From Fidelibacterota bacterium (GTDB taxonomy: Bacteria; Fidelibacterota; Fidelibacteria; Fidelibacterales; Fidelibacteraceae), in NCBI GenBank assembly GCA_034723415.1, contig JAYEOX010000125.1, forward strand, positions 1 to 11,623: DNA of 11,623 nt, given 5' to 3'. Below the pieces are notes generated by a model. The model saw only the letters and a list, made by a program, of their open reading frames with translations. It did not search any database and was not told where the DNA came from. The translations under genes and the position numbers were made by a program. Position 1 is the stretch's first letter, and the number at the start of each line of letters is the position of its first letter. Below are positions 2,778 through 11,623 of this stretch, piece after piece.

Positions 2778-2928
2778 ATTAAATTCCTAAATGTTTTTAA
2801 CACAAAGAACGTAAAGATTTTTCAAATTAAGTATTCTTAAATTATAATTCATTATTCATTATTTTAATTCGTTCTATTTGTGCTATTCCTTGTAACTATT
2901 TTCGTGTGTTTTCGTGGCTAATATTTTA

Positions 2929-4469: not shown

Positions 4470-4982
4470 TTAAACATCATTTGTGCTCCATTGTGAACTT
4501 TGTGGTGTGATCTCAATAATATTAAACTCATCAACATCAAATACTTCAACAAATTCATCTATCATATCATTTCTAACTGTCAAAAAACATTCTCTTTCAC
4601 TATTTAAAACTACCTTTATCAACTTATAAAAACCTTTTTTTAAGTTAATTTCAACAGGTCCGATTTCATCAATAAATATTGGTTCAACATTATTCTTAAT
4701 CACAGAATTTATTATTTTTTCTGCAAATTTTATCCCCTCTTCTGAAAAACTAAATCTGCTAAATTGAAATTTTTTATTCCAATTTCTTGATGTATATTTT
4801 TTTAAGTAAGCAAAAGAAGTATGCTTTTTGCTTTGCAAATGTATAATATCATATCCAATAAATTTGCCATTTTTAATAACTTTTTTACAAGCAAACCCAT
4901 CACCTTTTTTATCTTGCTCAAACAATGAAATTAACTTTGTTGTTTTTCCAGATCGAATGTCGCCTGTAATTATATTTATCAT
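4470..4982 (-). CDS. Small P-loop NTPase (NTPase_1/THEP1- or DUF2478-like)
   Basis: 170 aa. N-terminal Walker A GDIRSGKTT, GF..GYD strand motif, and Walker B IFIDEIG. Confidence 0.82.
   Translation of the reverse strand: MINIITGDIRSGKTTKLISLFEQDKKGDGFACKKVIKNGKFIGYDIIHLQSKKHTSFAYLKKYTSRNWNKKFQFSRFSFSEEGIKFAEKIINSVIKNNVEPIFIDEIGPVEINLKKGFYKLIKVVLNSERECFLTVRNDMIDEFVEVFDVDEFNIIEITPQSSQWSTNDV
4480..4507 (+). repeat. Degenerate (TTTGTG-type) repeat copy in the 3' end of the NTPase gene
   Basis: TTGTGAACTTTGTG (4491-4504) versus TTGCGAACTTTGCG (5858-5871) is 12 of 14, with both differences C>T. Both encode QSSQ. Confidence 0.6.
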
Positions 4983-5065
4983 TTTTTAATTATTTTACCC
5001 TTTATGAGTTTCCATTTTGAAAAACAGAAAACATTCTGTCTTTACCTCTTCTTTTTTTGCCACAA

Positions 5066-5136
5066 TTCTTCTTTGCGACTTTGCCTGTCCGCTACAGGCG
5101 AGCGTGAACTTATTCTTTGCACCTTTTGTGTAAAAC
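5066..5136 (+). repeat. Intergenic repeat copy interrupted by a 19-nt hairpin
   Basis: TTCTTCTTTGCGACTTTGC (5066-5084) is identical to 8370-8388. GCGTGAACTT (5102-5111) is identical to 5843-5852. The inverted repeat GCCTGT/ACAGGC lies at 5083-5088 and 5094-5099. Confidence 0.85.
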
Positions 5137-5137
5137 C

Positions 5138-6022
5138 TTATTTATCCCGCAAATGCTTCACATCTTTCCCGTAACGAATTGCTTGAATTTCCGAAACTAT
5201 CGAAATAGCAATCTCTGGCGGTGAAGCACCACCGATGTCAATTCCGACAGGCAAATAACAATAACTTAAATTCGGATTGTCAACTTCGGATTTCAATTTA
5301 TCAAATATAATTTTCTTTTTACTTCGTGATGAAACCATACCGATATATTTTGGGTTCCAATTGGATTTATAAATTTTATTTAAAACTAAACTATCATAAT
5401 TATGTTCATAAGTTGCAATAATAAAATAAGAATTTGGTGAAACTTCTTGATTTGAAAGTACATCTTTAAATTTACCAAATATTTTATTATCTGCTCCTTC
5501 AATTTTTCCCAACACATCTTTTCTATCATCAATTAAAGTTACAAAATAATCAAGATTTTTAAAATGATACACCAATTCCTTTCCTATATGTCCTGCACCA
5601 AAAATATAAATATAATTTTTCGTTGCGAAATATTCATAAAACAAAGTTGCATTCCCACCGCAGATCATGTTTGTTTTTTGTCCGTCTGCTTCGTCATCAA
5701 GATTATATTTTACAAGTTCGTTTTTTTTAGTTTCAAAAATTTTTTTTGCCTTTGCTATCGCCATTCTTTCAATTGTTCCACCACCGACAGTTCCCAATAT
5801 TTTATTTTTTACCTTATTTACCCTTTGCGTCTTTGCGTCTTTGCGTGAACTTCCTTTTTGCGAACTTTGCGAGAAACTTTTTCTTTCTTCAGGATACACG
5901 ATCATTTTCGCACCTGTTTTTGACGGACCGGATCCTTCTGTTTTAACAACAGTAATTATCACACCGGGTTTCCTTCCCTGATGCAATTCAAAAATCTCTT
6001 TATTCAATGTTTCATTTTTCAT
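5138..6022 (-). CDS. xdhC: XdhC/CoxI-family molybdoenzyme maturation factor carrying an in-frame insertion of about 27 aa
   Basis: 294 aa. GSGP..GAKMIV..GTVGGG..E, MICGG, Rossmann IFGAGHIG, IATYEH..D, YIGMVSSRSK, PVGIDIG..SPPEIAISIVSEI. The start overlaps the upstream stop (ATGA at 6019-6022). The symbol follows Rhodobacter accessory-factor usage. Confidence 0.92.
   Translation of the reverse strand: MKNETLNKEIFELHQGRKPGVIITVVKTEGSGPSKTGAKMIVYPEERKSFSQSSQKGSSRKDAKTQRVNKVKNKILGTVGGGTIERMAIAKAKKIFETKKNELVKYNLDDEADGQKTNMICGGNATLFYEYFATKNYIYIFGAGHIGKELVYHFKNLDYFVTLIDDRKDVLGKIEGADNKIFGKFKDVLSNQEVSPNSYFIIATYEHNYDSLVLNKIYKSNWNPKYIGMVSSRSKKKIIFDKLKSEVDNPNLSYCYLPVGIDIGGASPPEIAISIVSEIQAIRYGKDVKHLRDK
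5823..5877 (+). repeat. Octamer repeat element (CTTTGCGT)x3-GAACTT-CC-TTTTTGCGAACTTTGCGAGAAAC inside xdhC
   Basis: Three perfect CTTTGCGT copies at 5823-5846, then two further TTTGCGA units. It encodes FSQSSQKGSSRKDAKTQR. Confidence 0.92.
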
Positions 6023-6744
6023 TGAAAATCCTTCTTGAAAATTGTTACATATTCTTTACCTTTCATAAATCTTGTTGGTGTCGCTTGAATTACATTTGTT
6101 CTAAACACAGAATAATCGTTAATAATCGTACCGGAAACAACATCAATCCCAAAATCAAATAAAATTGGAGAAAGTGGAGTTGACGGACCGAGCATTACAA
6201 CGAAACTTTTTTTGGAAACAAATTTCATTACTTCATCAAAAGTATGATTTGTAATTGAAGTTGCTGTTAATGCAATAATATCTGCATCTGGAAGATAGTT
6301 TGGAATTTCATTTTCTGATAAATCATTCTCTTGTGGTTGTTTTTCGAATATTTGTAATTGTTTGAATTCATTTTTTAATTCAATTAAAAAAGGAAAGTGG
6401 CCAATCACTCCGATATTTTTCCCTTTCCCTTTTTCAAGTATAATATTTTTCGCATTTATTTTGCTGTAATTATTGTTAGCAAATGCTGCGGCAGAATTTA
6501 TAGCCGCCATTCCAACTGACGCTTCTATTAAATTATCCGACAATGAAAATTCTGCCAATTCTCTTAATGAATATTTTTCCAACGAACCGGAATTCTTAAC
6601 TTTTTGATGAGGCCGCTCATAATGAAGTGTGCTTGCAACTCCTTCATATTTTCCGGCTTTAATCAATGTAGAAAAAACGCCTATTATCACTTCTTCTACC
6701 GGAATATCGGGAACTTCGTTTATTAATCTATTTAATAATTTCAT
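6019..6744 (-). CDS. DUF364/DUF4213-like protein (putative heavy-metal-chelation family)
   Basis: 241 aa. EASVGMAAINS, VIGHFPF, ADIIALTATSITNHT, MLGPSTPLSP.LFDFG.D.VSG, recognised as DUF364-type motifs. Confidence 0.85.
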   Translation of the reverse strand: MKLLNRLINEVPDIPVEEVIIGVFSTLIKAGKYEGVASTLHYERPHQKVKNSGSLEKYSLRELAEFSLSDNLIEASVGMAAINSAAAFANNNYSKINAKNIILEKGKGKNIGVIGHFPFLIELKNEFKQLQIFEKQPQENDLSENEIPNYLPDADIIALTATSITNHTFDEVMKFVSKKSFVVMLGPSTPLSPILFDFGIDVVSGTIINDYSVFRTNVIQATPTRFMKGKEYVTIFKKDFQ

Positions 6745-6746
6745 CT

Positions 6747-7376
6747 TTAGAAAATTAGCGAATTACCTATTTCACAAAAAACAGCTACAAGTAGAAGTGA
6801 GATCGGAGCAACAAAACCAACTTTATTAAAATTATATTTTATTATTTGAAACTTCGAATTTTGTTTCATTTTCAAAAATGTACCAATAATCATTCCACTA
6901 ACAATTGTATTTACAATTAGAAAACTAACAATTTTTATGACTGGTTCTAAATATAATCCTTCGGCCGGATGAAAAATAAATTTCTGTGAAAAAGTAAAAA
7001 GCAAAATCCAACCTAAACTCATTATTGCAGATTTTACATAAATTTTATTTTCGGAATAAACTTTAATAAAACCGAATACGATTAATGATTCTAAAAGGAT
7101 TGAAACTGCCGGATTAATTGCAAACATTGCACTTCTTAACGGAATAAATAGATCACTAAGTTTTATCATACTAGCTACCAATGCAGTATAAAAAATTGTA
7201 GATTGTTTCCCGGTGCTTTTATACGAGGTAAACATAAAATAAAAAGCGATCGGGAACATTATCATTCCGGGAAAACCGGTTGGTAAAAAATGAACTAAAT
7301 AACCAAGCGTCGCTTCGATAATTCCCCAAAGTCCACCGAAAAATAGTATTGTTAAAATTGTTCTTTTGTTACTCAT
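6747..7376 (-). CDS. Uncharacterised integral membrane protein with about 6-7 TM segments
   Basis: 209 aa, hydrophobic throughout, with N-terminal LWGIIEATLGYLVH. RBS AAGGGA at 7381-7386. It ends 2 nt before the DUF364 start. Confidence 0.8.
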   Translation of the reverse strand: MSNKRTILTILFFGGLWGIIEATLGYLVHFLPTGFPGMIMFPIAFYFMFTSYKSTGKQSTIFYTALVASMIKLSDLFIPLRSAMFAINPAVSILLESLIVFGFIKVYSENKIYVKSAIMSLGWILLFTFSQKFIFHPAEGLYLEPVIKIVSFLIVNTIVSGMIIGTFLKMKQNSKFQIIKYNFNKVGFVAPISLLLVAVFCEIGNSLIF

Positions 7377-7460
7377 AATTTCCCTTTTGTTAATTTTTAT
7401 TTCATTGTTTGTAAATTACTGAATTTTTTTATTATAATCAATTTAATATTTTACAATTTA

Positions 7461-8870
7461 TTATTTACTTTTTATAATCTTCCCAAAAAATTCTTTCAAT
7501 ATCCTAATACAAACATCTTTTCTATAACTTTTTGAAGACCGACTATCATCAATAGGTTTAATAAGTTTATTGTATTTTTTGACAACTTCAAAATAAACAC
7601 TATCTATTTCCCGTTTCGTTTTCCCTATCATTTTCTTTTCCAAATCTCTCGATCGAACAACAGTAGAAGCCACTGCGCCAAATGCAATTCTAACATCAGA
7701 AACTTTATCATTTTCAAAATCTACCATCCCAATGAAAGATGCTTTTGATAAACTCATTCCCTTTCGTGAACCGGCTTTTTTATAATAATTTATGTCATAA
7801 CTTTTAGCAGGAATAATTATTTTATATAAAATTTCGTTTGAATCTATAATCGTCTTTCCCGGACCATAAATAAATTTATCTATTGTAATTGTCCTCTCAT
7901 TTTGTTTACTTTTCAAAACTAATTCTGCATCTGCTGCATATAAAAATGGAAGTGTGTCACCGGCAGGAGAAGCATTGATTATATTTCCGCCGATTGTCGC
8001 GAGATTTCGTGTTGGAAATGAAGCCATTTCTGAAATTAATTCTTTGAATACTTCCGGAATATTTTCATTCATCAACAATTCATTTAATGTAACAGCAGAA
8101 CCAATGTGAATTTTTTCATCAATCAATTGAATCTTTTTTAATTGATCCAAATTCCCAATAAATAAAAGTTGTTTATTGAATTTAGGCTTAACTCCGGAAC
8201 TACCGGCATTTTTCACCATCAAATCAGTCCCACCTGAAATAATCGTAACTTCTTCATTATCTAAAATTTCTAATGCTTCATCAATAGTATTTGCAAATTC
8301 TCCTTTTTTGCTTACTATTTTTTGCGACTTGGCGATTTGGTGAGCATTATTCCCCAAGCTATAATTATCTTCTTCTTTGCGACTTTGCGACTTTGCGAGA
8401 GGGATTTCTTTTTCCATTTTCTCCACCGCTAACTTCACACCTTCAACAATCATCTGATAACCCGTGCAACGACATAAATTCCCCGAAAGTGCCTCTTTTA
8501 TCTCGGTTTCATTCGGATTTTTATTTACATTTAACAGTCCGGCAGTTGACATTACCATTCCCGATGTACAGAATCCACACTGAACAGACCCGGCTTCCAA
8601 AAACGACTCTTCAATCAATTTATATTCATCTGTTTTGTTGAATTCTTCCAAAGTTAAAATACTTTTCCCATTAATCATTCCGGCCGAAATCAAACAAGAA
8701 TTTACTGCTTTCCCATCAAGTAAAATTATACAAGCCCCACACTCACCTTCACCACAACCTTCTTTTACTGACTTTAACCCAAAATCATCTCTCAAAATAT
8801 CCAATAATCTTCGACTTGGATCTACTTCTATTATCTCATTTTTATTATTTAATTGGAACTCTATTTTCAT
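7461..8870 (-). CDS. Xanthine-dehydrogenase-family fused [2Fe-2S] + FAD-binding subunit
   Basis: 469 aa. N-terminal CGEGECGAC..NSC and QCGFC..NLCRC bind two 2Fe-2S clusters. The C-terminal FAD domain has ISGGTD, RNLATIGGNIINASPAGD, RIAFGAVA and PIDDSRSS..YR. ATGA overlap with the Mo subunit and RBS GGAGG at 8881-8885. Confidence 0.93.
   Translation of the reverse strand: MKIEFQLNNKNEIIEVDPSRRLLDILRDDFGLKSVKEGCGEGECGACIILLDGKAVNSCLISAGMINGKSILTLEEFNKTDEYKLIEESFLEAGSVQCGFCTSGMVMSTAGLLNVNKNPNETEIKEALSGNLCRCTGYQMIVEGVKLAVEKMEKEIPLAKSQSRKEEDNYSLGNNAHQIAKSQKIVSKKGEFANTIDEALEILDNEEVTIISGGTDLMVKNAGSSGVKPKFNKQLLFIGNLDQLKKIQLIDEKIHIGSAVTLNELLMNENIPEVFKELISEMASFPTRNLATIGGNIINASPAGDTLPFLYAADAELVLKSKQNERTITIDKFIYGPGKTIIDSNEILYKIIIPAKSYDINYYKKAGSRKGMSLSKASFIGMVDFENDKVSDVRIAFGAVASTVVRSRDLEKKMIGKTKREIDSVYFEVVKKYNKLIKPIDDSRSSKSYRKDVCIRILKEFFGKIIKSK
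8321..8343 (+). repeat. Degenerate second octamer repeat copy in the FeS-FAD linker
   Basis: TTTGCGACTTGGCGATTTGGTGA matches 8376-8398 at 19 of 23 nt and encodes HQIAKSQK. Confidence 0.75.
8375..8400 (+). repeat. Octamer repeat element (CTTTGCGA)x3 + GA, inside the FeS-FAD linker
   Basis: Three perfect tandem copies at 8375-8382, 8383-8390 and 8391-8398. It encodes LAKSQSRK on the minus strand. Confidence 0.92.
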
Positions 8871-10975
8871 TTTTTCATTGCCTCCATTAAATATTCAGAA
8901 GTTATTGGAATCTTTTTTATTGTGATTGAAAGAGCATTTGAAACAGCTTCCGCAATTGCCGGTGGCGGGCCTGTCAATGGTAATTCTCCGGCACACTTCG
9001 CACCAAAAGGACCAAATTCATAAGGATTTTTTACAAATTCACTTTGGAATTTTGGTATATCTTTTACTGTTGGAATTTTGTAATCAGTCATATTTTTTTG
9101 AACTAATTTTCCTTTAGATGAATTCATTACTTCCGTTGTAGCCCAGCCGATTCCTTGAAGCATTCCGCCTTCCATCTGTCCTCGTAAAGCTCGCTCGTCA
9201 ATTACCGTTCCTACATCATAAACCGCCCACATATTTTTAACATCTATTTCGAAAGTAACAGGATCAATTTCTACTTCAGCAACATTTACTCCATAAGAAT
9301 AAACCGGATAAGCATCGCCTTCAAATTTGTCATCATCCCATTTCAGAAAATCCGGATGCTTATAAATTCTAGTAACTGTAATATCTTTTTGCTTTTCCCA
9401 CTTTTCCTTCAATTCCACACTTGCACTTTTTAGCAATCCCCCAACGATCATTGTTGTTCTTGATGCAACTGTCGGACCTGAATCCGGAACTTTTTTGGTA
9501 TCAGGAATTTCATAAATCACTTGTTCTATCGGTATTGAAAGAGTGTACGAAACAATTTTTCTGAGAGCGGTTTCAGCTCCTTGCCCCATCTCTACACTGG
9601 AAACATTGATAGAAACTTGATTGCCTTTTTTTTGTAAAATAATCTTTCCTTTAATATCATTTTCACCCTTTCCTGTAAATCCACATCCGTGCAAAAACAG
9701 TGACATTCCCATACCTTTGAATTTCTTTTTTTCCGTAGAATGTTTTTTATAATTGGACATTTTTTCAACAATTTCAATCATCTTCGGTAACTTCACCTCT
9801 TCACGGATTATTCCCTTTGTAGCTGTAGAATCACCACTTTTCAACAGATGCCGTTTCTTAAAATCTAAAACATTAATTTTTAATCTTTTTGCAATATTTG
9901 TCATCAACATTTCAATTGCAAATATAACTTGTGGGGCACCAAATCCACGATATGCACCACAAGGAACGGTATTCGTTTTATAATTTTTGCCTGTTACTTT
10001 TAAATTGTGAAAATTGTAAACTCCCGTTGCAGAAAATATTCCTCTCTGAAGAACGACAGGTGAAAGCCCGGAAAAAGCTCCGGCATTGAAATTTACATCA
10101 ACTATTAATGCGGTAATATTTTTATTTTTATCAAGACCAATTTTGTAATGAATAATTGACGGATGTCTTTTTGTGGAAGAAATAATATCTTCATTTCTAT
10201 CGTAAATTATTTTTACCGGATGTTTTGTTTTCAATGAAGCGACTGCAACTTGACCGGCAAGTAATGATGGAAATTCCTCTTTGCCGCCAAAAGCTCCACC
10301 GGTTGTAGAATGAGTTACTCGAATTTGATCTGTTTTCCAACCAAGCACATCTTGAATTGCACCTTCGATAAAAAACGGACATTGCATCGATCCAAAAATA
10401 TGCATCTTATCATCTTTGAATTCTGCAACAATTCCCTGCGGTTCAATATAAATATGTTCTTGATAACCTGTTTGATATTTCTCTTCAATGATCGTTTCCG
10501 CTTCTTGGAATGCTTTTGTCGGATCACCTTTTGAATAATTGTATTCTGTAAAAATTGCTTTATTATTGACCGCTTCTTTAATTGATAAAATCGGTTTTTT
10601 CTCTTCATATTCAATCTTAATTTCATTTACAATTTTACTTATTATTTCACGATCAGCTCCAACAACCAACAATATCGGCTGACCAACATAATGGACTTCA
10701 TTTTCAGCAAAAATCGGATGATCGGAAACAACAGTCCGCATTCTATTAATTCCCGGCACATCATTTTTATCAATCACAAAATAATTTTTGGGTAAATTTG
10801 GAATTTTTATAGACAATATCTTTCCTTTCGGAATTTCACTTCTTACGGTTTTCGCATAATATAAATCTTTAAATTTTACATCGTCAATGTATTTTGCTTT
10901 ACCACTAATTTTCCCTTTCCCATCAACTCTGTAAATTGCTTTACTAATATTATTTTCCACAATATTCCTCGTCAT
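8867..10975 (-). CDS. Xanthine-dehydrogenase-family molybdopterin-binding large subunit
   Basis: 702 aa. QEHIYIEP, SMQCP, GGAFGGKE, KRHP, AYRGFGAPQ, EMGQG, GPTVASR, GQMEGG, DYKIPT, and GAKCAGE (catalytic Glu). Confidence 0.95.
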   Translation of the reverse strand: MTRNIVENNISKAIYRVDGKGKISGKAKYIDDVKFKDLYYAKTVRSEIPKGKILSIKIPNLPKNYFVIDKNDVPGINRMRTVVSDHPIFAENEVHYVGQPILLVVGADREIISKIVNEIKIEYEEKKPILSIKEAVNNKAIFTEYNYSKGDPTKAFQEAETIIEEKYQTGYQEHIYIEPQGIVAEFKDDKMHIFGSMQCPFFIEGAIQDVLGWKTDQIRVTHSTTGGAFGGKEEFPSLLAGQVAVASLKTKHPVKIIYDRNEDIISSTKRHPSIIHYKIGLDKNKNITALIVDVNFNAGAFSGLSPVVLQRGIFSATGVYNFHNLKVTGKNYKTNTVPCGAYRGFGAPQVIFAIEMLMTNIAKRLKINVLDFKKRHLLKSGDSTATKGIIREEVKLPKMIEIVEKMSNYKKHSTEKKKFKGMGMSLFLHGCGFTGKGENDIKGKIILQKKGNQVSINVSSVEMGQGAETALRKIVSYTLSIPIEQVIYEIPDTKKVPDSGPTVASRTTMIVGGLLKSASVELKEKWEKQKDITVTRIYKHPDFLKWDDDKFEGDAYPVYSYGVNVAEVEIDPVTFEIDVKNMWAVYDVGTVIDERALRGQMEGGMLQGIGWATTEVMNSSKGKLVQKNMTDYKIPTVKDIPKFQSEFVKNPYEFGPFGAKCAGELPLTGPPPAIAEAVSNALSITIKKIPITSEYLMEAMKK

Positions 10976-11537
10976 AATATTTCTTTATTTTTTCATAATC
11001 TTCTATAGTGTCAACATCAAGATGAATTCCCAGATCATCAACATCAAGTTTATAATCATCTATCTTGTGAATGAAATCACGAAGGATTTCATCATCTGAC
11101 ATATTTAACATTTCTTTAATTAATTTACTTTTGAAAAGTATTGGATGTCCCTTTTTCCCATTGCATCTTGGCGAAACAATGCCGGAATTTATCTCTAACA
11201 TTTTTCTATAAGTTGACGATTTCACCAATGGTTGATCACCGGGAATAATAAAAAACCGTTCTGCTTTAATTTCGCGAACACCTCTGCGAATTGATGAGAA
11301 CATTCCCTTTTCATAATTTTTATTTATAACTGTTTCAACATTTGACAAATTATAAGTTAGCTTTTGAATTCGCTCACATTGATGCCCTGCAACAACAATA
11401 ATCCGATCACAAATACTTTCCATTCCTTCAACACATCTTTCTAAAATATTTTTATCACCTAATTTCAATTCCATTTTAAACTTTTTCATTCGTCGTGAAA
11501 AGCCACCTGCTAAAATTATTCCTTCTACTTTTTTCAT
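10950..11537 (-). CDS. mocA: Molybdenum cofactor cytidylyltransferase (MocA/YgfJ-like NTP transferase)
   Basis: 195 aa. IILAGGFSRRM, GMFSSIRRG, PGDQP, GHPILF, LDVDT..DY. It lies next to an XDH-family enzyme, many of which use MCD, and overlaps the next gene by 26 nt. Confidence 0.8.
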   Translation of the reverse strand: MKKVEGIILAGGFSRRMKKFKMELKLGDKNILERCVEGMESICDRIIVVAGHQCERIQKLTYNLSNVETVINKNYEKGMFSSIRRGVREIKAERFFIIPGDQPLVKSSTYRKMLEINSGIVSPRCNGKKGHPILFKSKLIKEMLNMSDDEILRDFIHKIDDYKLDVDDLGIHLDVDTIEDYEKIKKYYDEEYCGK

Positions 11538-11556
11538 TCGTTTATGTTTCCTTTCT

Positions 11557-11582
11557 TCTCGCTAAGTCGCAAAGTCGCAAAG
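11557..11582 (-). repeat. Octamer repeat element copy, opposite orientation, upstream of mocA
   Basis: The + strand reads TCTCGCTAAGTCGCAAAGTCGCAAAG. Its reverse complement CTTTGCGACTTTGCGACTTAGCGAGA matches 8375-8400 at 25 of 26 nt. Confidence 0.9.
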
Positions 11583-11623
11583 TTGTTTTATATTTTATTT
11601 TGTTCATTATTTTATATTTCCAA

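Follow-up and report, generated by a model that had tools for sequence, protein, structure and literature searches.

The 11,623-nt stretch of DNA analyzed here (contig JAYEOX010000125.1 of a Fidelibacterota bacterium, hereafter the window) carries tandem triplets of an octamer, CTTTGCG(A/T), which we read as being mostly the orphaned terminal inverted arms of a small cassette centered on a GxxExxY gene. According to this explanation, to which we give an even chance of being right, the cognate nuclease would bind and cut the arms, which would spread through break repair and subsequently be eroded or amplified in tandem; the binding, cutting and targeting are inferred. The original prediction, made from the letters of the window, had proposed a dispersed, non-autonomous repeat that is not a palindrome and lacks terminal inverted repeats. 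Its dispersed and non-autonomous character stands, with empty alleles in relatives and a partner encoded elsewhere, but each triplet proves to be one member of an inverted pair of arms, which keep a set orientation at gene junctions, and terminal inverted repeats are present in the complete elements, most copies in the window being single arms. Because the triplets are single arms, and most copies look eroded or locally amplified, the 26-nt triplet itself is not presented as a mobile unit.

The genome carrying the window (G000; 1.94 Mb, 29.6% GC, 94% complete) was compared with its congeners G001, G002 and G003 and with other members of the phylum. All six repeat stretches originally noted are real and lie where they had been placed, and 25 of the 26 nt at 8375-8400 agree with the copy at 11557-11582 read in reverse complement. 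Within the window, the triplet pattern has three matches as against none in 200 shuffles; in G000 the pattern as originally formulated gives 20 clusters (none in five Markov simulations), and loose chains of at least three units number 79 (none in three simulations). A profile search of G000 recovered 80 copies on 45 contigs, compared with 0-1 in simulated sequence, a count that is descriptive only because the profile was trained on 53 copies from the same genome, the fixed-pattern counts being the unbiased measure of enrichment. The repeat is thus neither a product of chance (about 80 copies genome-wide versus 0-1 expected) nor confined to this locus. Fifty-three of the 80 copies end in AGA or TGA. 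Across the phylum the triplet pattern occurs in 24 of 61 genomes, with no control matches, and its counts are uneven inside the genus, ranging from 1 to 79.

Two of the six stretches are not quite what they had seemed. The degenerate copy at 4480-4507 is present as a degenerate member of a sister nonamer family (CACAAAG) rather than of the octamer family, and the arm stretch at 5066-5136 additionally contains a separate 19-nt hairpin (5083-5101) within an arm unit; arms of a further sister family, at 2900-2916, were absent from the initial list. The proposal that the element colonizes coding sequence is true of the window and atypical of the genome: called genes span 88.5% of G000 (1736 genes from a self-trained caller, in which a few edge assignments are possibly wrong), and 16 of the 80 copies lie inside them, most at gene ends. 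Of about 80 copies, the 4 that lie inside a gene at over 100 nt from its ends are all in the window.

The complete form of the element is found at G000:C82:30476-30967, where a GxxExxY gene lies between left and right octamer arms and the right arm extends into the ribosome-binding site of the next gene. Read on the mRNA strand, the left arm consists of CGCAAAG units and comes after stop codons, and the right arm consists of CTTTGCG units and comes before starts. G000 contains three GxxExxY genes and ten four-helix-bundle matches over the cut-off; a second GxxExxY gene (C73) is flanked by repeated right octamer arms, the third has a different repeat alongside, and the four-helix genes are mostly accompanied by inverted arms of other short repeats. 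For the clade of this nuclease, with 595 genomic loci, the same arrangement recurs among the best 80, which come from many phyla: a left arm lies upstream in 55, a right arm downstream in 63, and both in 52, compared with 3 and 2 of 152 control windows. When the nearest arms were scored, 49 loci read left-gene-right and 7 right-gene-left. In the 38 simplest elements, which were used for arm matching and flank tests, the two arms of one element agree at 24.2 of 30 nt, as against 15.7 between elements, and at the variable positions an element's own arms are matched in 29 of 38 (15.2 for comparison). The cassettes are about 450 nt long, and the arm starts no more than 35 nt past the upstream stop in 19 of the 23 with a called upstream gene.

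These features are partly shared with REP- (repetitive extragenic palindromic) or MITE-like (miniature inverted-repeat transposable element) sequences moved in trans by a Y1 (REP-associated tyrosine transposase, RAYT) or DDE transposase, which likewise combine terminal inverted repeats with small size and an intergenic bias, and Y1 genes are common in relatives. However, G000 has no Y1 transposase match (DDE transposases were not searched for), no target site duplication is evident in the 38 cassettes (mean shared flank 3.79 nt versus 3.69 nt when shuffled), and the enclosed gene is GxxExxY, encoding a PD-(D/E)XK protein (with no search for DDE families made); we regard this as the least probable of the readings considered. 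Integron attC sites, suggested by arms that end in GTTAA, were dropped, the ends varying between AGA, TGA and GTA; an integrase was not searched for.

The G000 GxxExxY proteins match TIGR04256 with 142.6 and 133.2 bits. The catalytic residues D67, E77 and K79 are invariant in 20 proteins, Q91 and Y95 being also kept, and the structural model (predicted local distance difference score, pLDDT, 96) has Cas4 and lambda-type exonucleases as its nearest folds, with modest E-values. The protein is predicted to be a PD-(D/E)XK nuclease of 125-145 aa; in the accessible text of PMC3424549, PDDEXK_3 is entered as of unknown function, with multiple transfers. In a tree of 32 proteins from the phylum, for which arm labels were assigned by eye before the tree was built, the 16 with CRCnRAG arms fall on one side (support 98/94), whatever the host family. 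In a wider tree of 77 proteins (9 of 86 having been removed with an absent or tied label), the type of outer arm end requires one change, compared with 24.4 when shuffled: 31 proteins from many phyla, including that of C73, have GAGA/GTGA-type ends, which the original prediction had already noted for the repeat, and 46 have GT ends, the clade to which the C82 protein belongs. The match between arm end and clade reflects long conservation and does not by itself prove recognition by the nuclease. A GxxExxY match is present in 21 of the 24 triplet-bearing genomes, and a further 22 genomes have the gene and no triplet, those inspected carrying mostly other arm types; these counts ignore kinship. 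The conjecture that a GxxExxY gene elsewhere in the genome is the partner of the window's repeats is therefore upheld by the C73 and C82 loci and by the agreement of arm end with nuclease clade.

Two observations concern the distribution of these proteins more broadly. One genome (G053) has 30 GxxExxY matches, many fragmentary. Near-identical proteins occur across families (L045 in G049 and L046 in G059; L053 in G058 and L044/L047/L048, the latter set apparently at the same junction), which suggests recent transfer.

The cassette could nonetheless be passive cargo, its arms spread through host homologous or microhomology recombination and slippage, with the GxxExxY and four-helix genes hitchhiking while serving another purpose (defense or addiction) and the junction bias arising purely from selection. 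Such a history would be consistent with the same layout around non-nuclease cargo, with general DNA exchange between G000 and G003, with the tandem amplification of arm plus spacer, and with the fact that no mobility enzyme is proven. It fits less well with the retention of the arm consensus and its three terminal bases across proteins about 50% identical in more than 10 phyla, which indicates a constraint tied to the protein, or with left and right arms that remain matched within one element; we consider it possible, though unlikely.

The placement of the arms in G000 is strongly polarized. Among co-directional gene pairs, 26 left and 3 right arms lie near stops, and 8 right and 3 left near starts (p=2.7e-4); spacers between divergent genes hold 1 of 48 intergenic copies, though such spacers make up 19% of intergenic DNA, and left-type copies account for 11 of 12 within genes of at least 100 aa. 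Stop codons were ruled out as the cause of this coding-strand bias, the consensus with a GAGA end being open in every frame on both strands. Several other repeat families of G000 likewise place left arms after stops. Strict co-orientation of the neighbors is not claimed because neighbor-gene calls are noisy in GC-rich loci (both co-oriented in only 14 of 38). Most octamer copies in G000 are solo arms, and close pairs in the same orientation are spaced by 33-59 nt in 14 of 16 cases. At G000:C35:1009-1076 and in L094 (G003:C90), left arms are amplified in 42-nt steps at a gene 5' end, giving a repeated SRKVAKSQR N-terminal peptide provided that the called start is correct.

Positional polarity of this kind would also suit host regulatory sites (for termination, translation or nucleoid-protein binding) that arise by slippage and are selected near stops and starts, as has been proposed for the GGGAATC and TAACTGA repeats, and the accessible text of PMC4692102 describes the same polarity for the Xanthomonas/Nostoc heptamers. 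Regulatory sites would, however, be hard to reconcile with the patchiness inside the genus, with congeners that carry different families at the same junction, with insertion within a protein loop and with the tight tie to a cargo gene, and this origin appears highly improbable. The position of the arms just past the upstream stop bears on a reading in which they act as RNA, pairing like 23S rRNA intervening sequences (IVS), looping out the cargo to juxtapose stop and start, with RNase III processing and an RNA intermediate. The C82 cassette does fold with its arms paired (z -2.9), and the layout is that of the IVS elements as given in the accessible part of PMC4990558. Against this, there is no G-U strand bias between the arms (60 sense versus 71 on the other strand, 54 elements), no reverse transcriptase was found in G000 despite its completeness (11 of 61 genomes have one), and solo arms predominate in G000; an RNA-level role is improbable, if less so than a regulatory one.

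Comparison with relatives, which had been proposed as a search for empty alleles, reveals empty sites at xdhC, at the xdhC-NTPase junction and at thrC-mocA. The 27-residue insert of XdhC is missing from 18 of 19 homologues, G003 being the one with the insert, which there contains an additional nested 24-nt hairpin; in the XdhC model the domain is otherwise intact, and the insert forms a loop of low confidence (48-71) that lies between two strands and is predicted to be disordered. XdhS and XdhM form a single frame in G000, G002 and G003, with arm-containing linkers that differ from species to species, the linker of G001 being interrupted by a contig end. The suggestion that the repeats add new peptide segments to enzymes is thereby borne out by the XdhC loop and the XdhS-XdhM linker. 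The thrC-mocA junction is empty in G001 and seven family relatives, holds a nonamer left arm (beyond the window) and an octamer right arm in G000, and has an amplified left arm and no octamer in G003; an 11-12-nt imperfect repeat on both sides of the arm could be a deletion scar. G006 and G010 have an entire GxxExxY cassette at a different junction of the same operon, and one C181 site is occupied by a GxxExxY cassette in G002 and, in G000, by a decayed copy of its left arm followed by a four-helix cassette. Congeners also carry different repeat families at the same junction. From the thrC-mocA, G006/G010 and C181 comparisons, it follows that junctions have been filled, replaced and eroded repeatedly. 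Two metagenome pattern scans returned no further xdhC alleles.

The xdhC insert is also informative about transfer between species. In the insert tract, G000 and G003 are identical at 120 of 126 nt, compared with 415 of 534 in the remaining aligned gene; because the insert is 95% identical and the rest of the gene 78%, the insert is likely to have crossed species. Precise loss in G001 and G002 is not an explanation because G003 is the first branch in the genus (support 96) and yet the tract is near-identical. The thrC-mocA spacer is likewise 96% identical between G000 and G003, as against 81-84% in the flanking genes. Possibly the xdhC tract reflects ordinary recombination, because these two genomes share many other near-identical tracts. 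Stretches of 250-920 nt, for example at L083/C71, L110/C145 and L096/C30, are 95-98% identical in these two species, which elsewhere agree at about 78%, and they record recent gene flow. The case for arm-centered transfer tracts as a general rule is weak: of 59 short tracts, 8 are found close to arms (1.6% of columns), a signal that is discounted because the arms are alike by family and few arm sites are of high identity.

In the cassette explanation, the nuclease would bind each arm at its three CRCnRAG units and cut at or near the arm end, and repair of the break from a filled copy would transmit cassettes and gene-less derivatives together with short flanking tracts. Insertions would persist mainly at stop-start junctions, the gene and one arm would then be lost by deletion or replacement, and the surviving arm, along with some 10-35 nt of neighboring DNA, would amplify in tandem. 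Left arms would be tolerated as C-terminal tails, as the XdhC loop and as the XdhS-XdhM linker because they can be translated, free of stops, into polar S/R/K/Q/D peptides.

Several observations weigh against the GxxExxY nuclease as the putative mover. On the 77-protein tree the arm end changes once, a single evolutionary event for which linkage alone suffices; 3 of the 24 triplet genomes (70-93% complete) have no GxxExxY match; and Y1 transposases occur in 49 of the 61 genomes searched. Four-helix-bundle genes without the nuclease motif show the same layout with other repeats, so that a host factor common to both could be the mover. Octamer left-right pairs no more than 1.5 kb apart number only 4 in G000, and both coding insertions consist of left arms only, leaving the entry of solo arms into xdhC unaccounted for. 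G000 and G003 share 63 near-identical tracts in 125 kb, with just 4 of 18 arm sites reaching 93% identity. Finally, no joint skipping an arm or cassette, and no circle, was found in the contigs of four DNA runs from one study (window and C82 region), contigs that show presence rather than absence and from which rare forms are dropped. A stronger proposal, held tentatively and at clearly less than even probability, is that of a widespread class of minimal mobile element in which a PD-(D/E)XK nuclease of 125-145 aa recognizes its own three-unit arms and moves itself and gene-less modules across species without target duplication, aimed at stop-start junctions and writing loops, tails and fusions into enzymes.

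The window itself covers a minus-strand operon for purine degradation (MocA-like transferase, xanthine dehydrogenase subunits, XdhC, NTPase, PALP enzyme and 8-oxoguanine deaminase), and the positions of its arms and their hosts are collected in Table 1. The NTPase has 170 aa in G000 as against 157-159 aa in most relatives.

Table 1. Repeat arms in the window and the genes that they adjoin or enter.
Feature	Position	Strand	Context
Right-type arm, three octamers + GAGA	11557..11582	-	Ends 20 nt before start of MocA-like nucleotidyltransferase gene
Left-type arm, in frame	8375..8400	+	First half of linker fusing 2Fe-2S (XdhS) and FAD (XdhM) subunits
Second left-type arm, degenerate	8320..8345	+	Same XdhS-XdhM linker; 55 nt from first arm
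Fused xdhS-xdhM gene, 469 aa	7461..8870	-	Two overlapping genes in 8/8 relatives outside the genus
xdhC in-frame insert, 81 nt / 27 aa	5807..5887	-	Boundaries known to within a few nt; contains two left-type arms (5823-5848, 5856-5877)
XdhC-family maturation factor	5138..6022	-	Host of the insert
Left-type arms	5066..5136	+	Directly past xdhC stop; xdhC-NTPase junction a few nt long in 8 family relatives
19-nt hairpin, separate small repeat family	5083..5101	.	Within outer arm unit, after CGC
Degenerate left-type arm, sister nonamer family	4480..4507	+	Read as NTPase C-terminal extension
Left-type arm, CACGAA nonamer family	2900..2916	+	After PALP-enzyme stop

Two families of tiny hairpins (about 19-25 nt) are nested in arm units right after CGC, that is, at the variable fourth position, at many G000 and G003 loci; a left-type unit lies no more than 22 nt away in 31 of 55 copies, and either repeated targeting or descent from a few events would explain the pattern. 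A second copy of the window end (10773-11623) at G000:C172:1-851 is 96.7% identical (28 differences in 851 nt) and is likely a strain variant; it runs on into thrC and is the source of the left arm given for the mocA junction. Contigs from two DNA runs link 291 to 1448 without the cation-efflux gene between them, and some strain may lack this gene or have a substitute there, the intervening letters of these contigs being not known. At the NTPase-PALP junction of L034 (G002:C133) there is an extra 273-aa gene on the opposite strand, which we take to resemble a BRO-N family protein; a similar gene is common to G000 and G003 elsewhere.

Polarized junction repeats of 7-9 nt are on record for several bacteria, with no origin assigned, and one such family is now tied to a specific nuclease clade via a three-base arm end that is kept in more than 10 phyla, with the window recording the effects of the arms on proteins in the form of a 27-residue XdhC loop and a subunit fusion. 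If the nuclease does move the arms, it would count as one of the smallest units able to move themselves and would open a path to gene fusion; if it does not, the family is an orderly case of junction repeats, of modest interest.

The cyanobacterial STRR and SDR repeats are comparable short tandem repeats. Other parallels are offered by the heptamers GGGAATC and GGGGA(C/T)T of Xanthomonas and Nostoc (PMC4692102) and by the TAACTGA repeats of Beggiatoaceae (PMC4679880), polarized short repeats for which quadruplex or regulatory roles have been proposed, the accessible text of both papers reporting no link to a mobile element. As described there, these repeats resemble the G000 arms in being tandem 7-9-mers, with the purine-rich strand after stops and its complement before starts, in forming inverted pairs, in being scarce between divergent genes and in being occasionally read as peptide; the G000 arms differ in sequence and in being associated with a nuclease gene and with sites that are filled in some genomes and empty in others. 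The 23S rRNA IVS that bear an open reading frame (S23p four-helix bundle) consist, in the accessible account, of a small gene within complementary ends of about 28 bp, patchily distributed and horizontally moved (PMC4990558). G000 is similar in having its ten four-helix genes within or near repeat arms; unlike the IVS, its sites are protein-coding operons, with all copies of the window in or between protein genes, a GxxExxY partner and no RNA-strand bias. Rickettsia palindromic elements (RPEs) and in-frame MITEs, as far as the accessible texts describe them, add peptide to enzymes through repeat DNA in frame, as in the window, RPEs being about 150 bp long with nearly half in genes, (PMC10969869, PMC3184786), in contrast to the 81-nt insert and the solo left arms of G000, which are rare in frame (4 of about 80 copies lie deep in genes), of a single orientation and free of target duplication. 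The likeness to RPEs drawn in the original prediction thus holds for the outcome, an in-frame peptide, and for nothing beyond it.

REP/REPIN-RAYT systems comprise, as here, many short gene-less copies and a few enzyme genes flanked by the same repeat. The G000 enzyme is not of the HUH/Y1 type, however, and the arms are built of tandem direct repeats, for which the sole pairing partner is an arm some distance away, the nested 19-25-nt elements being the only hairpins. Free-standing homing endonucleases spread selfishly by break repair with short co-converted flanks, a behavior that the G000 cassette may share, and the short tract shared at xdhC is at most suggestive of homing-like copying. PD-(D/E)XK homing endonucleases such as I-Ssp6803I have the same nuclease fold (accessible text of PMC3424549), but the G000 cassette involves neither an intron nor an intein and lacks one conserved target. 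For MITEs, REP-RAYT systems, RPEs and IVS, at least one defining feature fails in each case, and no description of a GxxExxY arm cassette was found in the literature searched, which did not cover subscription papers and supplements. The present analysis adds the match between arm end and nuclease clade, an XdhS-XdhM fusion whose unfused state is known, and a transferred XdhC loop.

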